Positions 11,579-18,600 of a stretch of DNA of 64,000 bases are shown one piece after another. Made by a program: the position numbers and the translations under genes. Each line of letters opens with the position of its first letter. Within the stretch, counting starts at the first letter, position 1. The notes beneath the pieces are model-generated. The model was not told the DNA's origin and did not search any database. It saw nothing but the letters and a program-made list of their open reading frames with translations. Source of the DNA: Escherichia coli (lineage in GTDB: Bacteria; Pseudomonadota; Gammaproteobacteria; Enterobacterales; Enterobacteriaceae); NCBI RefSeq assembly GCF_003334765.1, contig NZ_QOWT01000008.1; one strand, 5' to 3'.

Positions 11579-12862
11579 ATGACAGAAGCGATGAAGATTA
11601 CCCTCTCTACCCAACCTGCCGACGCGCGCTGGGGAGAAAAAGCAACTTACAGCATTAATAATGACGGCATTACCCTGCATTTGAACGGGGCAGACGATCT
11701 GGGGCTGATCCAGCGTGCGGCGCGCAAGATTGACGGTCTGGGCATCAAGCATGTTCAGTTAAGCGGTGAAGGCTGGGATGCGGATCGCTGCTGGGCATTC
11801 TGGCAAGGTTACAAAGCCCCGAAAGGCACGCGTAAAGTGGTGTGGCCGGATCTGGACGATGCCCAGCGCCAGGAACTGGATAACCGCCTGATGATCATCG
11901 ACTGGGTGCGTGACACCATCAACGCACCGGCAGAAGAATTGGGACCATCGCAACTGGCACAGCGTGCTGTTGATCTGATCAGCAACGTCGCGGGCGATCG
12001 TGTGACTTATCGGATCACCAAAGGCGAAGATCTGCGTGAGCAAGGTTATATGGGGCTGCACACAGTCGGACGCGGTTCAGAACGTTCTCCGGTATTGCTG
12101 GCGCTGGATTACAACCCAACTGGCGATAAAGAAGCGCCAGTGTACGCGTGCCTGGTAGGTAAAGGTATCACTTTTGACTCCGGCGGCTACAGCATCAAAC
12201 AGACTGCGTTTATGGACTCGATGAAGTCGGACATGGGCGGCGCGGCAACGGTTACCGGGGCGCTGGCATTTGCCATTACGCGCGGACTGAACAAGCGCGT
12301 GAAGCTGTTCCTCTGCTGTGCGGATAACCTGATTAGCGGCAATGCGTTCAAGCTGGGCGATATCATCACCTATCGCAACGGTAAAAAAGTTGAAGTGATG
12401 AACACTGATGCCGAAGGGCGTCTGGTGCTTGCCGATGGTCTGATTGATGCCAGTGCGCAGAAACCGGAAATGATCATTGATGCGGCGACCCTCACCGGGG
12501 CGGCGAAAACTGCGCTGGGTAATGATTATCACGCGCTGTTCAGTTTTGACGATGCGCTGGCCGGTCGCTTGCTGGCGAGTGCCGCGCAGGAGAACGAACC
12601 GTTCTGGCGTCTGCCGCTGGCGGAGTTCCACCGCAGCCAGCTGCCGTCTAACTTTGCCGAACTGAACAATACCGGAAGCGCGGCGTATCCGGCAGGCGCG
12701 AGCACGGCGGCGGGCTTCCTGTCGCACTTTGTTGAGAACTATCAGCAAGGCTGGCTGCATATCGACTGCTCGGCGACTTACCGTAAAGCGCCGGTTGAAC
12801 AGTGGTCTGCGGGCGCTACGGGACTTGGTGTGCGCACGATAGCTAATCTGTTAACGGCGTAA
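11579..12862 (+). CDS. pepB: peptidase B (M17 aminopeptidase)
   Basis: ORF track 11492..12862; start at [10 protein letters not shown] (427 aa); NTDAEGRL motif. Confidence 0.9.
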
Positions 12863-12870
12863 ACTAATAT

Positions 12871-12968
<98 letters not shown>

Positions 12969-13003
12969 TTTGCGCCCCGAACGTTGAATGAATTGTGGTT
13001 CTT

Positions 13004-13780
13004 ATGTCCGAAACAAAAAACGAACTTGAAGACCTGCTGGAAAAAGCAGCAACTGAACCGGCGCACCGCCCGGCCTTTTTCCGTACTCTACTGGAATCCA
13101 CCGTCTGGGTGCCTGGTACGGCGGCGCAGGGCGAGGCTGTGGTTGAAGATAGCGCGCTTGATTTACAGCACTGGGAAAAAGAAGACGGCACCAGCGTCAT
13201 TCCTTTTTTCACCTCGTTAGAAGCACTTCAACAGGCGGTTGAAGACGAACAGGCATTTGTCGTAATGCCCGTTCGCACGCTGTTTGAGATGACACTTGGC
13301 GAAACGCTCTTCCTTAATGCCAAACTGCCAACCGGTAAAGAATTTATGCCGCGTGAAATCAGTTTGTTGATTGGTGAAGAGGGAAATCCGCTGAGCAGCC
13401 AGGAAATCCTGGAAGGCGGTGAATCGCTGATATTATCGGAAGTCGCAGAGCCGCCAGCACAAATGATTGATTCACTCACCACCTTATTTAAAACCATTAA
13501 GCCGGTGAAGCGTGCTTTTATTTGTTCAATTAAAGAGAACGAAGAGGCACAGCCTAATTTACTTATTGGCATTGAAGCCGATGGTGATATCGAAGAAATT
13601 ATTCAGGCGACGGGAAGTGTAGCGACCGATACATTACCTGGCGATGAACCAATCGATATTTGTCAGGTGAAAAAAGGGGAAAAAGGAATTAGCCACTTTA
13701 TTACCGAACATATTGCGCCATTCTATGAACGTCGCTGGGGTGGTTTTTTGCGTGACTTTAAACAGAATCGGATAATCTAA
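13004..13780 (+). CDS. sseB: SseB family protein
   Basis: ORF track 12995..13780 (GTG); ATG at 13004 gives 258 aa. Confidence 0.85.
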   Translation: MSETKNELEDLLEKAATEPAHRPAFFRTLLESTVWVPGTAAQGEAVVEDSALDLQHWEKEDGTSVIPFFTSLEALQQAVEDEQAFVVMPVRTLFEMTLGETLFLNAKLPTGKEFMPREISLLIGEEGNPLSSQEILEGGESLILSEVAEPPAQMIDSLTTLFKTIKPVKRAFICSIKENEEAQPNLLIGIEADGDIEEIIQATGSVATDTLPGDEPIDICQVKKGEKGISHFITEHIAPFYERRWGGFLRDFKQNRII

Positions 13781-13802
13781 AATATGCCGCCCAAAGGGCG
13801 GC
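13779..13802 (-). terminator. intrinsic terminator hairpin (gccgccc-aaa-gggcggc) with U-run on the minus strand; ends the leftward transcript and abuts the sseB stop
   Basis: perfect 7-bp GC stem 13786-13802 followed on the minus strand by AUAUUUU. Confidence 0.45.
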
Positions 13803-13960
13803 ATTCGGGCTTACTTGCTGCTCTGAAGGTTGTTAACCACCAGTAAATTGTCGCCGGAGAGACTCCGGTTATTATTTACCTCGGTTAACAGCGCACCAGA
13901 AACAATAAGTACGATACAAAAGCACCGTATCTTCATTGTGCGGTCCATGCGAAGACCGCA

Positions 13961-14035
13961 TCACGACAGCACCACTGGCGATATTGCCGCGATAGCAAGC
14001 GCTGTGAAACACCTGCATTTACGGCCACGGAACAT
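13961..14035 (-). CDS. candidate small ORF (24 aa, MFRGRKCRCFTALAIAAISPVVLS) with basic N-terminus and hydrophobic tail; hypothetical
   Basis: ATG preceded by AGGAAAGG Shine-Dalgarno; lies ~45 nt downstream of a predicted leftward promoter (-10 TATTAT, 14088-14093); stop overlaps the ATG of a second mini-ORF (TGATG). Confidence 0.25.
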   Translation of the reverse strand: MFRGRKCRCFTALAIAAISPVVLS

Positions 14036-14063
14036 CCTTTCCTAAAGCCAGCGCCCGTTTGCG

Positions 14064-14258
14064 AGACGGCGGAAAGGGCCGCAGTGGATAATACACTAAC
14101 AGAACAATAATAACTCTCTTTTGCTTGACAAAAAGAGAGTTACTGGCGAGTATTGTCTCCGCTGAGACGCGCTTGCATTACTACGGTAATACAACCTGCT
14201 GGAAAGGCCGCGAACCGGACCAGCAACAAAAAACCGCCTGATTTTGGCGGTTTTTTGT
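14064..14258. repeat. intergenic module copy 1: promoter -10, AT-rich 10-bp perfect palindrome, conserved core, GC hairpin terminator
   Basis: direct repeat of 14388-14582 with identical blocks (acggcggaaagggcc; ttttgcttgacaaaaagagagttactgg; aacctgctggaaaggccgcgaacc) and a diverged centre. Confidence 0.7.
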
Positions 14259-14402
14259 TTTTTAAAGGAAAGTGAATTTACATGTTTAAGTAATATCTTT
14301 TACCGGTTAGAATTTTTAATTTTGAGCAGGATTTGTTTATATTTGTCTGAATTCGGACTAATAAGCCAGGTTATTTTATTACCGAACACGGCGGAAAGGG
14401 CC
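14099..14402 (-). ncRNA. ryfA: RyfA-like small RNA (~304 nt)
   Basis: sigma70 -10 TATTAT at 14410-14415 (minus) places the TSS at 14402; transcript ends after the palindrome actctcttttgcttgacaaaaagagagt plus U-rich tail near 14099; position between sseA and sseB matches my recollection of E. coli ryfA. Confidence 0.5.
14228..14258. terminator. bidirectional GC hairpin (ccgcc-tgatttt-ggcgg) flanked by A-run and T-run, internal to ryfA
   Basis: aaaaaaccgcctgattttggcggttttttg. Confidence 0.5.
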
Positions 14403-14582
14403 GGTGTCGATAATACGCTAAATAAACAATAATTACTCTCTTTTGCTTGACAAAAAGAGAGTTACTGGTGAGTATTGTTTTGCTGTGAAGCACCTGCGTT
14501 GCTCATGTAACACAAGTCAACCTGCTGGAAAGGCCGCGAACCAGACTAGCAATAAAAAACCGCCAAATTCGGCGGTTTTTTA
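14388..14582. repeat. intergenic module copy 2 (sseA 3' region), paralogous to 14064-14258
   Basis: same block structure as copy 1; hairpin stems conserved while loops differ. Confidence 0.7.
14554..14582. terminator. bidirectional intrinsic terminator downstream of sseA
   Basis: aaaaaaccgccaaattcggcggtttttt; stem ccgcc/ggcgg with U-runs on both strands. Confidence 0.6.
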
Positions 14583-14597
14583 TTGCCTGTAAAATAC

Positions 14598-15443
14598 TTA
14601 TTTCACTGGCTCAACCGGTAAATCTGCCCGCGCGCCCCATTCACTCCATGCGCCGTCGTACAGTTTCACGTTTGGCACATCCAGCGTAGCGAGTGCTAAC
14701 AAAACCACGGCTGCCGTTACACCAGAGCCGCAGCTGACGATAATTGGTTTGTCGTAGCTGACGCCGCGACCAAAAAATATCGCATCCAGTTCATCGGTCG
14801 TTTTTAGTTCGCCTTCGCGCACCAGTTCCGTCCACGGAACATTCAGTGCTCCGGGAATATGTCCGCGACGTAAACCTGGGCGAGGTTCATCAACTTCTGC
14901 GTTAAAACGTGCAGCCGGGCGGGCATCAATAATTTGCGCCGTATTTTCATGGCTTGCCAATAATACATCGGTTACTTTCACCACGGCTTCAGGATTAAAC
15001 GCGGCGTTAAACTCTCCTTCCGGCAGCTCTACTGCACCTTCTTCTAACAGCAGATCATCGCGCTGCCAGCCTGCAAGTCCACCCCCCAGAATCGACACTT
15101 TCTCTACACCAAAGGTGCGCAGCATCCACCATGCTCGTGGGGCTGAGAAAAGATTACCTTCGTCATAGACAATCAGGTGCTTATCCTGGTTAACGCCTAA
15201 TTCACGCATCGCCACGGCGAACGTTTCCGGGCGCGGCAGCATGTGCGGAAGCGGGGAAGTGTGATCAGAAAGCGCTTCGATATCAAAAAACACTGCGCCG
15301 GGAATATGTCCATTCAGATACTCCTGAGCAACGTTACGATCCTCCTGTCCAGGCGACGCCATGCGGGCATCGATAATCTGAATTTCCGGGTCATCAATAT
15401 GTTCGGCGAGCCAGTCGGCTCCTACAAACCATGTCGTGGACAT
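14598..15443 (-). CDS. sseA: 3-mercaptopyruvate sulfurtransferase
   Basis: ORF track 14598..15602; start at MSTTWFVGADW (281 aa); two rhodanese domains with active-site CGSGVTA. Confidence 0.9.
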   Translation of the reverse strand: MSTTWFVGADWLAEHIDDPEIQIIDARMASPGQEDRNVAQEYLNGHIPGAVFFDIEALSDHTSPLPHMLPRPETFAVAMRELGVNQDKHLIVYDEGNLFSAPRAWWMLRTFGVEKVSILGGGLAGWQRDDLLLEEGAVELPEGEFNAAFNPEAVVKVTDVLLASHENTAQIIDARPAARFNAEVDEPRPGLRRGHIPGALNVPWTELVREGELKTTDELDAIFFGRGVSYDKPIIVSCGSGVTAAVVLLALATLDVPNVKLYDGAWSEWGARADLPVEPVK

Positions 15444-15649
15444 AGGCATCTCCATTTTTGCCGGGGTTAGGCTAAATTGTCGGATGTTTAGTGAAAAGCG
15501 ACAAGCAAAAGAGGCTGATTTGGCTGTCTGAGCCACAATTCTCACTAAAATTCGGATTGTATGGGCGTGATACTGAATTACATAACGTAAATTCTCACGC
15601 ATAATAATTATTCGACGTTGCTAACGGGCCATTGTGGCAGGGATGAAAA

Positions 15650-18600
15650 ATGAAAAAGTTACGCGTAGCCGCCTGCATGCTAATGCTGGCGCTGGCAGGG
15701 TGCGACAACAACGATAACGCGCCAACAGCGGTGAAAAAAGATGCGCCTTCTGAAGTTACTAAAGCGGCCTCTTCAGAAAACGCGAGTTCAGCAAAACTCT
15801 CCGTGCCGGAGAGACAAAAACTGGCCCAACAGAGTGCCGGTAAGGTGCTGACATTGCTGGATCTCTCTGAAGTCCAACTTGATGGTGCAGCCACGCTGGT
15901 GCTGACGTTCTCCATCCCTCTCGACCCGGATCAGGATTTCTCACGCGTTATTCATGTCGTCGATAAAAAAAGCGGCAAAGTGGATGGTGCCTGGGAGCTG
16001 TCAGATAATCTTAAAGAGTTACGTTTACGCCACCTCGAACCGAAACGTGATTTGATCGTTACTATTGGCAAGGAGGTCAAAGCACTCAACAACGCAACCT
16101 TCAGTAAAGATTACGAAAAAACTATAACTACCCGCGACATCCAACCCAGCGTCGGTTTTGCCAGCCGTGGTTCGCTGCTGCCTGGCAAAGTCGTTGAAGG
16201 GCTGCCGGTAATGGCGCTCAACGTTAATAATGTCGATGTTAACTTCTTCCGCGTTAAGCCAGAATCTCTGCCAGCATTCATTAGCCAATGGGAATACCGC
16301 AATTCGCTGGCGAACTGGCAGTCAGACAAACTGCTGCAGATGGCGGATCTGGTCTACACCGGACGGTTTGATCTCAATCCTGCGCGTAACACCCGTGAAA
16401 AATTATTGCTGCCGCTGGGCGATATCAAACCGCTTCAGCAGGCGGGCGTGTATCTGGCTGTGATGAATCAGGCTGGACGTTACGATTACAGTAATCCCGC
16501 GACGCTGTTTACGTTAAGTGATATCGGCGTTTCAGCTCACCGTTATCACAATCGTCTGGATATCTTTACCCAAAGTCTGGAAAACGGCGCGGCCCAGCAA
16601 GGAATTGAAGTCTCTTTATTAAATGAGAAAGGGCAGACTCTGACTCAGGCAACCAGTGACGCTCAGGGGCATGTGCAGCTGGAAAATGATAAAAACGCGC
16701 ATTACTGTTGGCGCGTAAAGACGGTCAGACAACGCTACTCGATTTAAAACTTCCGGCGCTGGACTTAGCAGAATTTAACATTGCTGGCGCGCCAGGCTAT
16801 AGCAAACAGTTTTTCATGTTTGGCCCACGCGATCTTTATCGCCCAGGTGAAACGGTAATCCTCAATGGTTTGCTGCGTGATGCAGACGGTAAAGCGTTGC
16901 CCAATCAACCCATCAAGTTAGACGTGATTAAACCCGATGGGCAGGTACTCAGGAGCGTCGTTAGTCAGCCGGAGAATGGCCTCTACCACTTTACCTGGCC
17001 ACTCGATAGCAATGCGGCAACCGGTATGTGGCATATTCGCGCTAACACGGGCGATAATCAGTATCGGATGTGGGATTTCCACGTCGAAGATTTTATGCCA
17101 GAGCGCATGGCGCTGAATCTGACCGGTGAGAAAACCCCGCTAACGCCGAAAGATGAAGTGAAATTCTCCGTGGTGGGGTACTACCTGTATGGTGCACCTG
17201 CTAATGGTAATACTTTGCAAGGGCAACTTTTCCTGCGCCCACTGCGTGAAGCTGTGTCAGCCTTACCTGGTTTTGAATTCGGCGATATAGCTGCCGAAAA
17301 TCTTTCCCGCACGCTGGATGAAGTTCAGTTGACGCTGGATGATAAAGGGCGCGGCGAAGTTTCTACAGAAAGCCAGTGGAAGGAAACGCATTCCCCATTA
17401 CAGGTTATTTTCCAGGGTAGTTTGCTGGAATCGGGCGGTCGCCCGGTGACGCGCCGCGCTGAGCAGGCTATCTGGCCTGCCGATGCATTGCCGGGGATCC
17501 GTCCGCAGTTCGCCTCGAAATCGGTTTACGATTATCGTACTGACAGCACGGTGAAACAGCCCATTGTTGATGAAGGCAGTAACGCCGCTTTTGACATCGT
17601 TTATAGCGATGCGCAAGGCGTGAAAAAAGCCGTGTCGGGCTTGCAGGTGCGCCTGATTCGCGAACGCCGCGATTACTACTGGAACTGGTCAGAAGATGAA
17701 GGCTGGCAGTCACAGTTTGATCAAAAAGATCTGATCGAAAATGAACAAACTCTGGATCTGAAAGCGGACGAAACCGGCAAGGTCAGTTTTCCGGTAGAGT
17801 GGGGCGCTTATCGTCTGGAAGTCAAAGCGCCGAATGAAGCGGTCAGTAGTGTTCGTTTCTGGGCTGGCTATAGCTGGCAGGACAACAGCGACGGTAGCGG
17901 CGCAGTGCGACCCGACCGTGTCACGCTGAAACTGGATAAAGCCAGTTATCGCCCTGGCGACACCATTAAGTTGCATATCGCCGCGCCAACGGCGGGTAAA
18001 GGTTATGCGATGGTCGAGTCCAGTGAAGGGCCGCTGTGGTGGCAAGAGATTGATGTTCGGGCTCAAGGGCTGGATCTGACGATTCCGGTCGATAAAACCT
18101 GGAATCGTCATGATCTGTATTTAAGTACGCTGGTGGTACGTCCTGGCGATAAATCTCGCTCCGCGACGCCAAAACGCGCGGTTGGTGTGTTGCATCTGCC
18201 GCTTGGCGATGAAAACCGTCGCCTCGATCTGGCGCTGGAAACACCAGCAAAAATGCGTCCCAATCAACCATTAACCGTGAAAATTAAAGCCAGCACTAAA
18301 AATGGCGAGAAGCCTAAACAGGTGAATGTGCTGGTGTCTGCCGTTGATAGTGGTGTGCTGAATATTACTGACTACGTCACGCCAGATCCGTGGCAGGCGT
18401 TCTTTGGTCAGAAACGCTATGGCGCAGACATTTACGATATTTACGGTCAGGTTATTGAAGGTCAGGGGCGTCTGGCAGCTCTGCGTTTCGGTGGCGATGG
18501 TGATGAGCTGAAACGTGGTGGTAAACCGCCGGTCAATCACGTCAATATTGTCGTGCAGCAGGCGCTGCCGGTAACGCTCAACGAACAGGGCGAAGGCTCG

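Follow-up and report, generated by a model that had tools for sequence, protein, structure and literature searches.

The interval between the genes sseB and sseA was analyzed in a stretch of Escherichia coli DNA of 64,000 nucleotides (nt) (contig NZ_QOWT01000008.1 of assembly GCF_003334765.1; hereafter, the window), in which the toxin gene ryfA/timP lies beside two direct repeats. This interval is the reference E. coli locus for ryfA/timP. In Salmonella, ryfA is the messenger RNA (mRNA) of the small membrane toxin TimP and is repressed by the divergently encoded small RNA (sRNA) TimR (PMC7667032, PMC11228461, PMC13000454), and the 5' end of TimR pairs with the timP 5' untranslated region (5'UTR) at the loop of stem-loop 2 (SL2; PMC13000454). 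The annotation of E. coli K-12 MG1655 lists sseA, timR (b4811, "putative small regulatory RNA TimR"), ryfA (b4440) containing the timP open reading frame (ORF; b4812), and sseB in the interval. The system in the window is this known timPR type I toxin-antitoxin, and its known mechanism is unchanged. The layout that we describe is one toxin mRNA and two TimR paralogs.

Identity of the window to K-12 and to further strains of laboratory or phylogroup A type is 99.8-100%. It is exactly identical to BL21(DE3) over 13700-14569 and to strain H3 over 13700-14700, and it differs from MG1655 by a single base near position 14358 of the spacer described below (ATATAAACAAATCC compared with ATATAAATAAATCC). 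This difference, together with the identity to BL21(DE3) and H3, indicates that the source of the window is a close relative of K-12 and not K-12 itself.

The ryfA RNA, corresponding to MG1655 b4440, occupies positions 13779-14082 on the minus strand. A covariance-model search with Rfam RF00126 matched it over the full model (positions 1-296) with 314.9 bits against a gathering score of 80, in agreement with an initial annotation of this DNA that had placed a RyfA-like RNA at ~14080 to ~13779. Within it, the timP ORF (13811-13936, minus strand) codes for a small toxic protein of the inner membrane with 41 amino acids (MKIRCFCIVLIVSGALLTEVNNNRSLSGDNLLVVNNLQSSK), the N-terminal half of which is hydrophobic; the protein scored 86.8 bits with the NCBIfam model NF040796 (toxic_TimP; cut-off, 45), and the Prokaryotic Genome Annotation Pipeline labels this ORF timP in 5,426 genomes. 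A second complete ryfA was not found, RF00126 having only one match in the scanned positions 11000-17000. The search for ORFs in 14085-14600 returned only unsupported candidates with TTG or GTG starts, and a second toxin ORF was rejected for this part of the locus.

The region between ryfA and sseA is dominated by a direct repeat. The repeat search identified a 91-nt block with 90% identity (14066-14156 and 14388-14478) and a 64-nt block with 84% identity (14192-14255 and 14518-14581), which enclose a diverged centre of 35 nt in the first copy (14157-14191) and 39 nt in the second (14479-14517). The whole copies extend over 14066-14258 and 14388-14582, approximately 195 bp each; the initial annotation had reported two direct repeats of this size, and the three identical blocks that it quoted were recovered by pairwise alignment. 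The similarity of the two copies is far above chance. The existence of a diverged centre had also been recognized correctly, although its length had been given as approximately 45 nt and its meaning had been missed: the centre is the TimR seed. Each copy of the repeat is a TimR/RyfB sRNA gene on the plus strand with its own promoter, and also includes the ryfA/timP promoter, which points the other way, and the ~15 nt with which ryfA begins.

Both copies end in a GC hairpin flanked by an A-run and a T-run, as had been noted at the outset. Terminator hairpin A (14225-14259; inverted repeat with 14-nt arms, 100% complementary) forms the 3' end of TimR paralog 1, whereas terminator hairpin B (14549-14586; 19-nt arms, 95% complementary) is common to TimR paralog 2 on the plus strand and to the convergent sseA ORF on the minus strand (14598-15602, stop codon at 14598). 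Both hairpins were also seen in the folds. Hairpin A is bidirectional in form and is kept across genera with compensatory changes. Between the modules lies an AT-rich spacer (14260-14374) that is restricted to two-module forms of the locus and is missing from single-module strains.

Rfam contains no TimR family, and membership was judged by a covariance model of our own, R1, built exclusively from nine non-Escherichia TimR homologues (Citrobacter, Yersinia, Rahnella, Erwinia, and Superficieibacter), namely sRNA-like stretches adjoining the ryfA loci of these genera. The ryfA loci were sampled with a degenerate hairpin pattern that returned at least 120 loci, mostly unrelated GC-rich hairpins, and left approximately 15 usable Enterobacterales loci, none of which came from Salmonella. 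Both copies matched R1 over its full length on the plus strand. The proximal copy, TimR paralog 1 (14159-14257, plus strand), carries a type I seed (GCUGAGACGCGCUUGC) and scored 97.8 bits (E-value 6e-20; fold z-score -4.3). The distal copy, TimR paralog 2 (14482-14581, plus strand), carries a type II seed (GCUGUGAAGCACCUGC), corresponds to MG1655 timR b4811, and scored 75.3 bits at 14480-14582 (E-value 5.5e-15; fold z-score -3.1). The stretch of repeat copy 1 carries no annotation in MG1655. The only other R1 matches in the window were two weak ones (26.2 and 21.3 bits) on the minus strand, lying over the two terminator hairpins. An alignment of 19 TimR sequences revealed three hairpins: SL1, which covaries (GC to AU); SL2, which is nearly invariant (CUGCUGG...CCAGCA); and the terminator. 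Both TimR copies of the window take this three-hairpin fold; they have the promoter, the central stem-loop, and the terminator in common and differ in the 5' seed. The initial annotation had read the functional unit leftward, and this reading is not upheld, the conserved unit being the ~100-nt TimR/RyfB gene on the plus strand.

The arrangement of the promoter boxes is the same in both modules. In the divergent promoter region of module 1 (14083-14158), the predicted ryfA boxes on the minus strand are a -10 TATTAT at 14093-14088, an alternative -10 TATTGT at 14109-14104, and a -35 TTGTCA at 14131-14126, whereas the predicted TimR boxes on the plus strand are a -35 TTGACA at 14125-14130 and a -10 GAGTAT at 14148-14153. 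The promoter region of module 2 (14405-14481), the informative sites of which are of the module II type, has the TimR boxes TTGACA at 14447-14452 and GAGTAT at 14470-14475 (plus strand), along with relic ryfA boxes TATTAT at 14415-14410, TATTGT at 14431-14426, and TTGTCA at 14453-14448 (minus strand). The minus-strand TATTAT that had been noticed upstream of the shared GGCCCUUUCCGCCG is thus present in both copies at a distance of 5-7 nt, and the copy near sseA does carry the first 15 nt of ryfA with its promoter sequence. The AT-rich palindrome TAACTCTCTTTT/AAAAGAGAGTTA at 14111-14142, with its equivalent at 14435-14464, is likewise real; the terminator role ascribed to it is not, for it contains the -35 boxes of the two divergent promoters, which overlap (plus strand, TTGACA; minus strand, TTGTCA). 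The promoter scan reported TTGTCA-16-TATTGT. It did not report the TimR promoters, the -10 GAGTAT of which has three of six matches and falls under the threshold, and the two main hairpins also went unreported in the promoter and terminator scan. The assignment of the TimR promoters rests on conservation across strains, TTGACA-17-GAGTAT being kept in all E. coli module types and the TTGACA box being equally placed in most species, and that of the hairpins on inverted repeats and folding. The boxes of module 1 are presumably functional.

Published data give evidence for expression of the proximal TimR gene in K-12. Small-RNA sequencing of K-12 by Shinhara et al. (2011) yielded a 71-nt read cluster, ECS011 (PMC3175480), which corresponds exactly to 14159-14229 on the plus strand of the window, that is, to TimR copy 1. 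A 35-mer Northern probe for ECS011 detected bands of ~95 and ~100 nt in K-12 (PMC3175480). This probe is the exact complement of 14161-14195; allowing up to three mismatches, it fits nowhere else in the window, which makes it specific to the seed of copy 1. Shinhara et al. equated ECS011 with IS129 of Chen et al. (2002), who had obtained a 90-95-nt signal with a double-stranded probe (cited in PMC3175480). In that literature, ECS011 is an antisense partner of IS128 with unknown function (Shinhara 2011, PMC3175480; Chen 2002; RF00125), whereas here it is a TimR paralog. Among the papers examined on this question, we found no description of two TimR paralogs in K-12 or of ECS011 as a TimR. A separate tiling-array candidate, C0614 (14399-14485 of the window, plus strand; coordinates from the supplement of PMC3175480), lies over the promoter region of the distal TimR and the bases with which that gene begins, and it may be an imprecisely placed TimR-II signal.

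We then compared the seeds with the resident toxin mRNA. TimR and ryfA are encoded on opposite strands, and the ryfA target and the TimR seed therefore read alike on the plus DNA strand. On this strand, the ryfA target reads GCTGTGAAACACCTGC (14001-14016), copy 2 reads GCTGTGAAGCACCTGC, and copy 1 reads GCTGAGACGCGCTTGC. Copy 2 and the resident ryfA (nt 64-83) share an uninterrupted complementary run of 20 nt with one G-U pair, which places the predicted TimR-binding site in the timP 5'UTR at 14000-14019 on the minus strand (type II allele, variable core UGUUU). The longest complementary run of copy 1 is 11 nt to the resident ryfA versus 17 nt to type I ryfA, and its seed is the exact complement of the ryfA allele of single-module strains (e.g., NCCP15648) and of E. 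whittamii. The duplex energies, restricted to the seed, were -38.7 kcal/mol for TimR-II with ryfA-II, -33.4 kcal/mol for TimR-I with ryfA-II, and -44.0 kcal/mol for TimR-I with ryfA-I. As judged from the sequence, the locus is a type I toxin-antitoxin, with a small hydrophobic toxin and an mRNA 5'UTR complementary to a local sRNA over 20 nt, and the diverged centre of the repeat is the TimR 5' seed that would set target specificity. The distal TimR is predicted to be the cognate antitoxin of the resident timP. The proximal TimR is probably non-cognate for the resident timP allele: its predicted pairing with the resident mRNA is weaker and would make it clearly the poorer partner, and some cross-reaction with that mRNA may occur.

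The same relationship was examined in 20 ryfA loci from six genera (Escherichia, Citrobacter, Superficieibacter, Yersinia, Rahnella, and Erwinia). In 19 of the 20 loci, no TimR was a better partner for ryfA nt 55-95 than the TimR of the same locus, and the runs were 16-21 nt long in 18 of these. The core of target and seed differs among loci and covaries inside each locus; further alleles include CACCC and a GUAUC type that lies outside the four listed by Fris et al. The best partner was the adjacent TimR in all but two loci, namely the window and strain 3702594, where the distal TimR matches. The start of copy 1 lies 77 nt from the ryfA 5' end, a spacing found in all other loci. Copy 2 has the same spacing, but measured to a 15-nt ryfA remnant, the real ryfA being 400 nt away.

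The E. coli isolate 3702594 (716-1470 and 2013-2136) is a second case of this kind, with a non-matching proximal TimR (type II-like) and a distal TimR complementary to the target. Its ryfA target is of the GUAUC type, which is absent from the four variable-region types in Fris 2017, and its locus is adjoined by an IS200/IS605 transposase gene and an STnc490 match. In two unrelated genomes, the start of ryfA has been lost: in E. coli fS54a (1290-1330) and Citrobacter amalonaticus (~8069), ryfA nt 1-63, both promoters, and the first TimR bases are gone, and the ryfA target is fused straight to the TimR seed. Target and seed form a 16-20-nt direct repeat on the plus DNA strand, and the fusion looks like a repeat-mediated deletion that silenced toxin and antitoxin together.

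The probable origin of the layout emerges from comparison with other E. coli genomes. A single module, in an interval shorter by 325 bp, is found in most complete E. coli genomes; single type II modules also occur. Two ryfA genes are present in approximately 178 E. coli genomes. In MINF_9A, PapRG-06-5, and CUVET19-970, sseB is followed by ryfA, TimR, terminator A, the AT-rich spacer, a ~83-nt sseB 3' fragment (sseB'), a second ryfA, a second TimR, terminator B, and sseA, and the cognate ryfA/TimR pairs are adjacent. The window agrees with these strains in terminator A and the spacer and as far as nt 14 of sseB', and it then jumps at the junction 14388|14389 to ryfA nt ~15 and the promoter and seed of module II, which indicates that a second ryfA was deleted, with a loss of about 357 bp. 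The 14-nt remnant (TTTATTACCGAACA; 14375-14388, plus strand) is an exact repeat of 13697-13710 within sseB, at the place where double-ryfA strains have the full ~83-nt fragment, and the following remnant of the second ryfA (14389-14404, minus strand) is ~15 nt of its 5' end, as identified by alignment to MINF_9A and PapRG-06-5, both of which have the whole gene.

The resident ryfA is itself a mosaic. Typing of informative sites against six reference modules revealed type I sites at 13815-13852 and 14082-14160, with type I continuing through the proximal TimR, and type II sites at 14005-14058. This type II segment, a minimum patch of ~50 nt, holds the TimR site.

In a survey of 5,426 complete E. 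coli genomes, TimR seed I was found in 4,544 genomes and ryfA target I in 2,910, TimR seed II in 2,021 (1,624 at 99% or more) and ryfA target II in 1,971, the AT-rich spacer in 2,243, and the deletion junction of K-12 type in no more than 1,774. Seed I without target I is in excess by ~1,630 genomes, which agrees with the number of K-12 type loci, and the K-12 type layout accounts for about 30% of the set. The repeat unit is confined to the sseB-sseA locus; each genome has one seed copy, and plasmids have none.

On the basis of these findings, we propose that the repeat is the relic of a tandem timP-timR duplication from which the distal ryfA was deleted, with the distal TimR left as the cognate antitoxin and the proximal TimR stranded, and we put the probability of this reading at roughly 80%. 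The ancestral arrangement would have had a type I module in the proximal position and a type II module in the distal one. A conversion patch would then have switched the TimR site of the proximal toxin from type I to type II, after which the donor ryfA copy would have been lost and TimR-I left without a partner. Most likely, the proximal TimR is the former partner of the resident ryfA, stranded by this gene-conversion switch of specificity. The anatomy, homology, complementarity, mosaic, and population counts come straight from the analysis, whereas repression, the sequence of these events, and the orphan position of the proximal TimR are inferred, the sequence of events from the mosaic. In the remaining pair, the TimR 5' end would pair with the SL2 loop of the timP 5'UTR (~nt 64-83) and block the pseudoknot-dependent start of translation, as shown in Salmonella.

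Several points weigh against this proposal. The 16-nt core of TimR-I with the resident mRNA has 11 Watson-Crick and three G-U pairs plus a flanking imperfect helix, and the duplex is merely ~5 kcal/mol weaker than the cognate one, so the term "orphan" may overstate the case. Repression of timP by either TimR in this genome type is presumed by analogy. The promoter boxes are consensus matches, with the TimR -10 below the scan threshold. The distal, cognate TimR is only "putative" in the MG1655 annotation and is not among the 229 candidates that small-RNA sequencing of K-12 produced (PMC3175480), where no reads for it were found. Finally, we found no genome with the intermediate arrangement (type I proximal, type II distal, and both ryfA genes intact), the sole search being uninformative because a real sseB piece joined to the match in every K-12 type genome.

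The alternative that survives best is that both TimR paralogs repress the single timP, the proximal one through extended imperfect pairing, in a redundant or additive manner. The seed-restricted energy of TimR-I with the resident target, -33.4 against -38.7 kcal/mol for the cognate duplex, would permit this, and the proximal copy is the one detected in K-12. Nevertheless, it pairs without interruption over at most 11 nt, compared with 20 nt for the distal copy, the tight covariation of seed and target in all other loci argues for selection for full core pairing, and S. dysenteriae RyfB1 lowered RyfA1 but not RyfA2 (PMC5333039). A further point in favor of joint repression is that the distal copy of BL21(DE3) has an insertion sequence (IS) element in its terminator loop, which the strain tolerates; however, Salmonella without timR grows normally (PMC7667032), and the viability of BL21 thus says little. 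Taken together, we regard joint repression as doubtful.

The insertion in BL21(DE3) (NC_012971.2, 2370-3813; window ~14566-14569) is an IS3-family ISEcB1 inside the terminator-hairpin loop of the distal TimR, and in BL21(DE3) the sRNA that is the predicted repressor of timP therefore has no normal 3' end.

An extension of the proposed relic of a tandem duplication, which we offer tentatively as a possibility with the odds against it, is that timP of K-12 type E. coli swapped its antitoxin partner while TimR-I, still transcribed, was kept for another role. Such a role may be partial cross-repression of timP, neutralization of incoming type I timP alleles, or regulation of other mRNAs in trans. 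If it is true, seed-target cassettes recombine among tandem modules, and this would be a concrete route to diverging specificities of type I toxin-antitoxins.

A second alternative follows the interpretation in the initial annotation, in which the repeat is a leftward terminator-palindrome-promoter module that gives rise to RyfA and to a second functional RyfA-like or IS128 sRNA, the two sharing their first 15 nt. The relic ryfA promoter boxes and these first 15 nt are indeed intact in copy 2, and Rfam IS128 (RF00125) matched 14214-14422 on the minus strand with 262.1 bits against a gathering score of 80. The 90-95-nt signal of Chen et al. (2002), obtained with a probe that does not separate the strands, would also be compatible with a leftward RNA. 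However, the body of such an RNA would consist only of the inter-module spacer and deletion remnants. It has no ATG-initiated ORF, and its spacer is missing from single-module E. coli. The second leftward unit had been drawn as ~300 nt, from 14402 to ~14099, but the strong bidirectional hairpin at 14259-14225 stands in its path and would end the transcript after ~175 nt. The strand-specific IS128 probe, which maps to the spacer at 14301-14335 of the window, gave a blank Northern blot in K-12, and deep sequencing gave zero reads (PMC3175480); the 90-100-nt signal is explained by ECS011, TimR copy 1, on the opposite strand. Moreover, the conserved, structured, and covarying unit sits on the plus strand. 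What had been called a second leftward unit is what a deletion left behind, a 14-nt piece of an sseB fragment joined to 15 nt from the 5' end of ryfA, and we consider a functional leftward RNA highly improbable. The proposed relation to the sibling genes ryfA1 and ryfA2 of Shigella, with the qualification that the second unit is no simple sibling copy, fits the finding that the second ryfA is reduced to ~15 nt. The earlier interpretation is thus partly supported.

These findings also bear on the IS128 family, the match to which is probably not a gene. The matched DNA consists of terminator A read in antisense, the spacer, what is left of sseB' and of the second ryfA, and the relic promoter of ryfA. 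The IS128 model also matched inter-module spacers at 2241-2450 in locus L004, 1454-1664 in locus L006, and 1157-1335 in isolate 3702594 (L005), with 165-213 bits, and in double-ryfA and related strains the matches run from terminator A across the spacer into the sseB' fragment. That the model matches the spacers of double-ryfA strains supports the notion that the family is spacer DNA; Rfam IS128 appears to describe spacer DNA and deletion debris and not an RNA gene.

The weakest alternative, that the similarity is generic and stems from an element resembling repetitive extragenic palindromes (REP) or miniature inverted-repeat transposable elements, or from two like terminators, with no link to timP, can draw on the A-run, GC-stem, and T-run hairpins at the end of both copies and on sub-threshold Rfam hits of terminator-rich families (RNAI, rimP leader, AgrB, and OhsC), but it is hardly credible given that the likeness spans ~190 nt, of which 91 nt, located upstream of the hairpin, are 90% identical, that E. 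coli genomes contain the sequence nowhere else, and that both copies match the TimR model of other genera over its full length. The initial annotation had also foreseen that the similarity might be limited to generic terminator sequence, which the alignment of this 91-nt block shows it is not. The idea of a mobile or REP element was rejected on the confinement of the unit to this locus. Membership in the OhsC, AgrB, OrzO-P, RNAI, rimP leader, or Leu leader families was likewise rejected, all hits being under the gathering scores and located on the terminator hairpins; those of OrzO-P, OhsC, and AgrB scored 25-30 bits and apparently come from the terminators.

In E. coli, zorO-orzO/zorP-orzP, ibs-sib, and ldr-rdl are paralogous pairs of toxin and antisense RNA in tandem or dispersed positions, in which a few nucleotides of the pairing region decide the partner; they are not known to be related in sequence to the locus in the window. 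The closest known system is timP-timR of Salmonella Typhimurium (Andresen 2020, PMC7667032; Rizvanovic 2024, PMC11228461; NAR 2026, PMC13000454), which is the same gene pair in the same sseB-sseA neighbourhood. As in Salmonella, ryfA encodes TimP and a divergent sRNA of ~100 nt pairs through its 5' end with the SL2 loop, a pairing that is predicted here. Unlike Salmonella, the window has two TimR genes for one timP, and the seed of the adjacent TimR does not match, the matching TimR lying 400 nt away behind the deleted second module.

S. dysenteriae has tandem ryfA1-ryfB1 and ryfA2-ryfB2 modules, and the RyfB pairing site overlaps the "variable region" of ryfA (Fris 2017, PMC5333039). The window resembles this arrangement in the tandem duplication and in the variable region over the pairing site. 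Repression in S. dysenteriae is partner-specific, at the RNA level for RyfB1 (PMC5333039). The target core of the window, UGUUU, is of the S. dysenteriae "ryfA2" type, whereas the proximal seed fits the CGCGU, "ryfA1-like" type (PMC5333039). Unlike in S. dysenteriae, one ryfA survives in the window, the second having been cut to 15 nt, and the sRNAs are swapped relative to their targets. The K-12 layout is not described in Fris 2017 (PMC5333039).

What may be new here is modest: an unannotated but expressed TimR paralog beside timP with a seed unfit for the resident toxin mRNA, an origin of the locus by duplication, patch conversion, and deletion, and a likely spurious Rfam IS128. For annotation, MG1655 has a single timR, 400 nt from the toxin gene, whereas the unannotated TimR-family gene beside the toxin gene holds the published expression evidence. 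Studies that delete timR in K-12, BL21, or other phylogroup A types, or that compare these with uropathogenic E. coli, avian pathogenic E. coli, or Salmonella, must allow for two paralogs with different seeds. TimR has been proposed to act alone where ryfA is absent (PMC13188913). With regard to evolution, the covarying seed-target alleles, the tandem modules, the conversion patch, and the seed-target repeat deletions form a compact natural example of a change in toxin-antitoxin specificity.

Multiple timPR copies may extend beyond Escherichia and Shigella, as suggested by Yersinia pekkanenii A125KOH2, in which the ryfA hairpin pattern occurred on three contigs. The two that were scanned contained ryfA matches with different target-seed pairs; the third is 369 bp long. 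Elsewhere in the window, Rfam matches below the gathering scores were recorded at 11350-11527 on the minus strand (V_AS5 and CssrA) and, also sub-threshold, at 12842-12946 (naRNA4/CssrE and ES036/CssrF), the latter with the appearance of REP-type palindromes.

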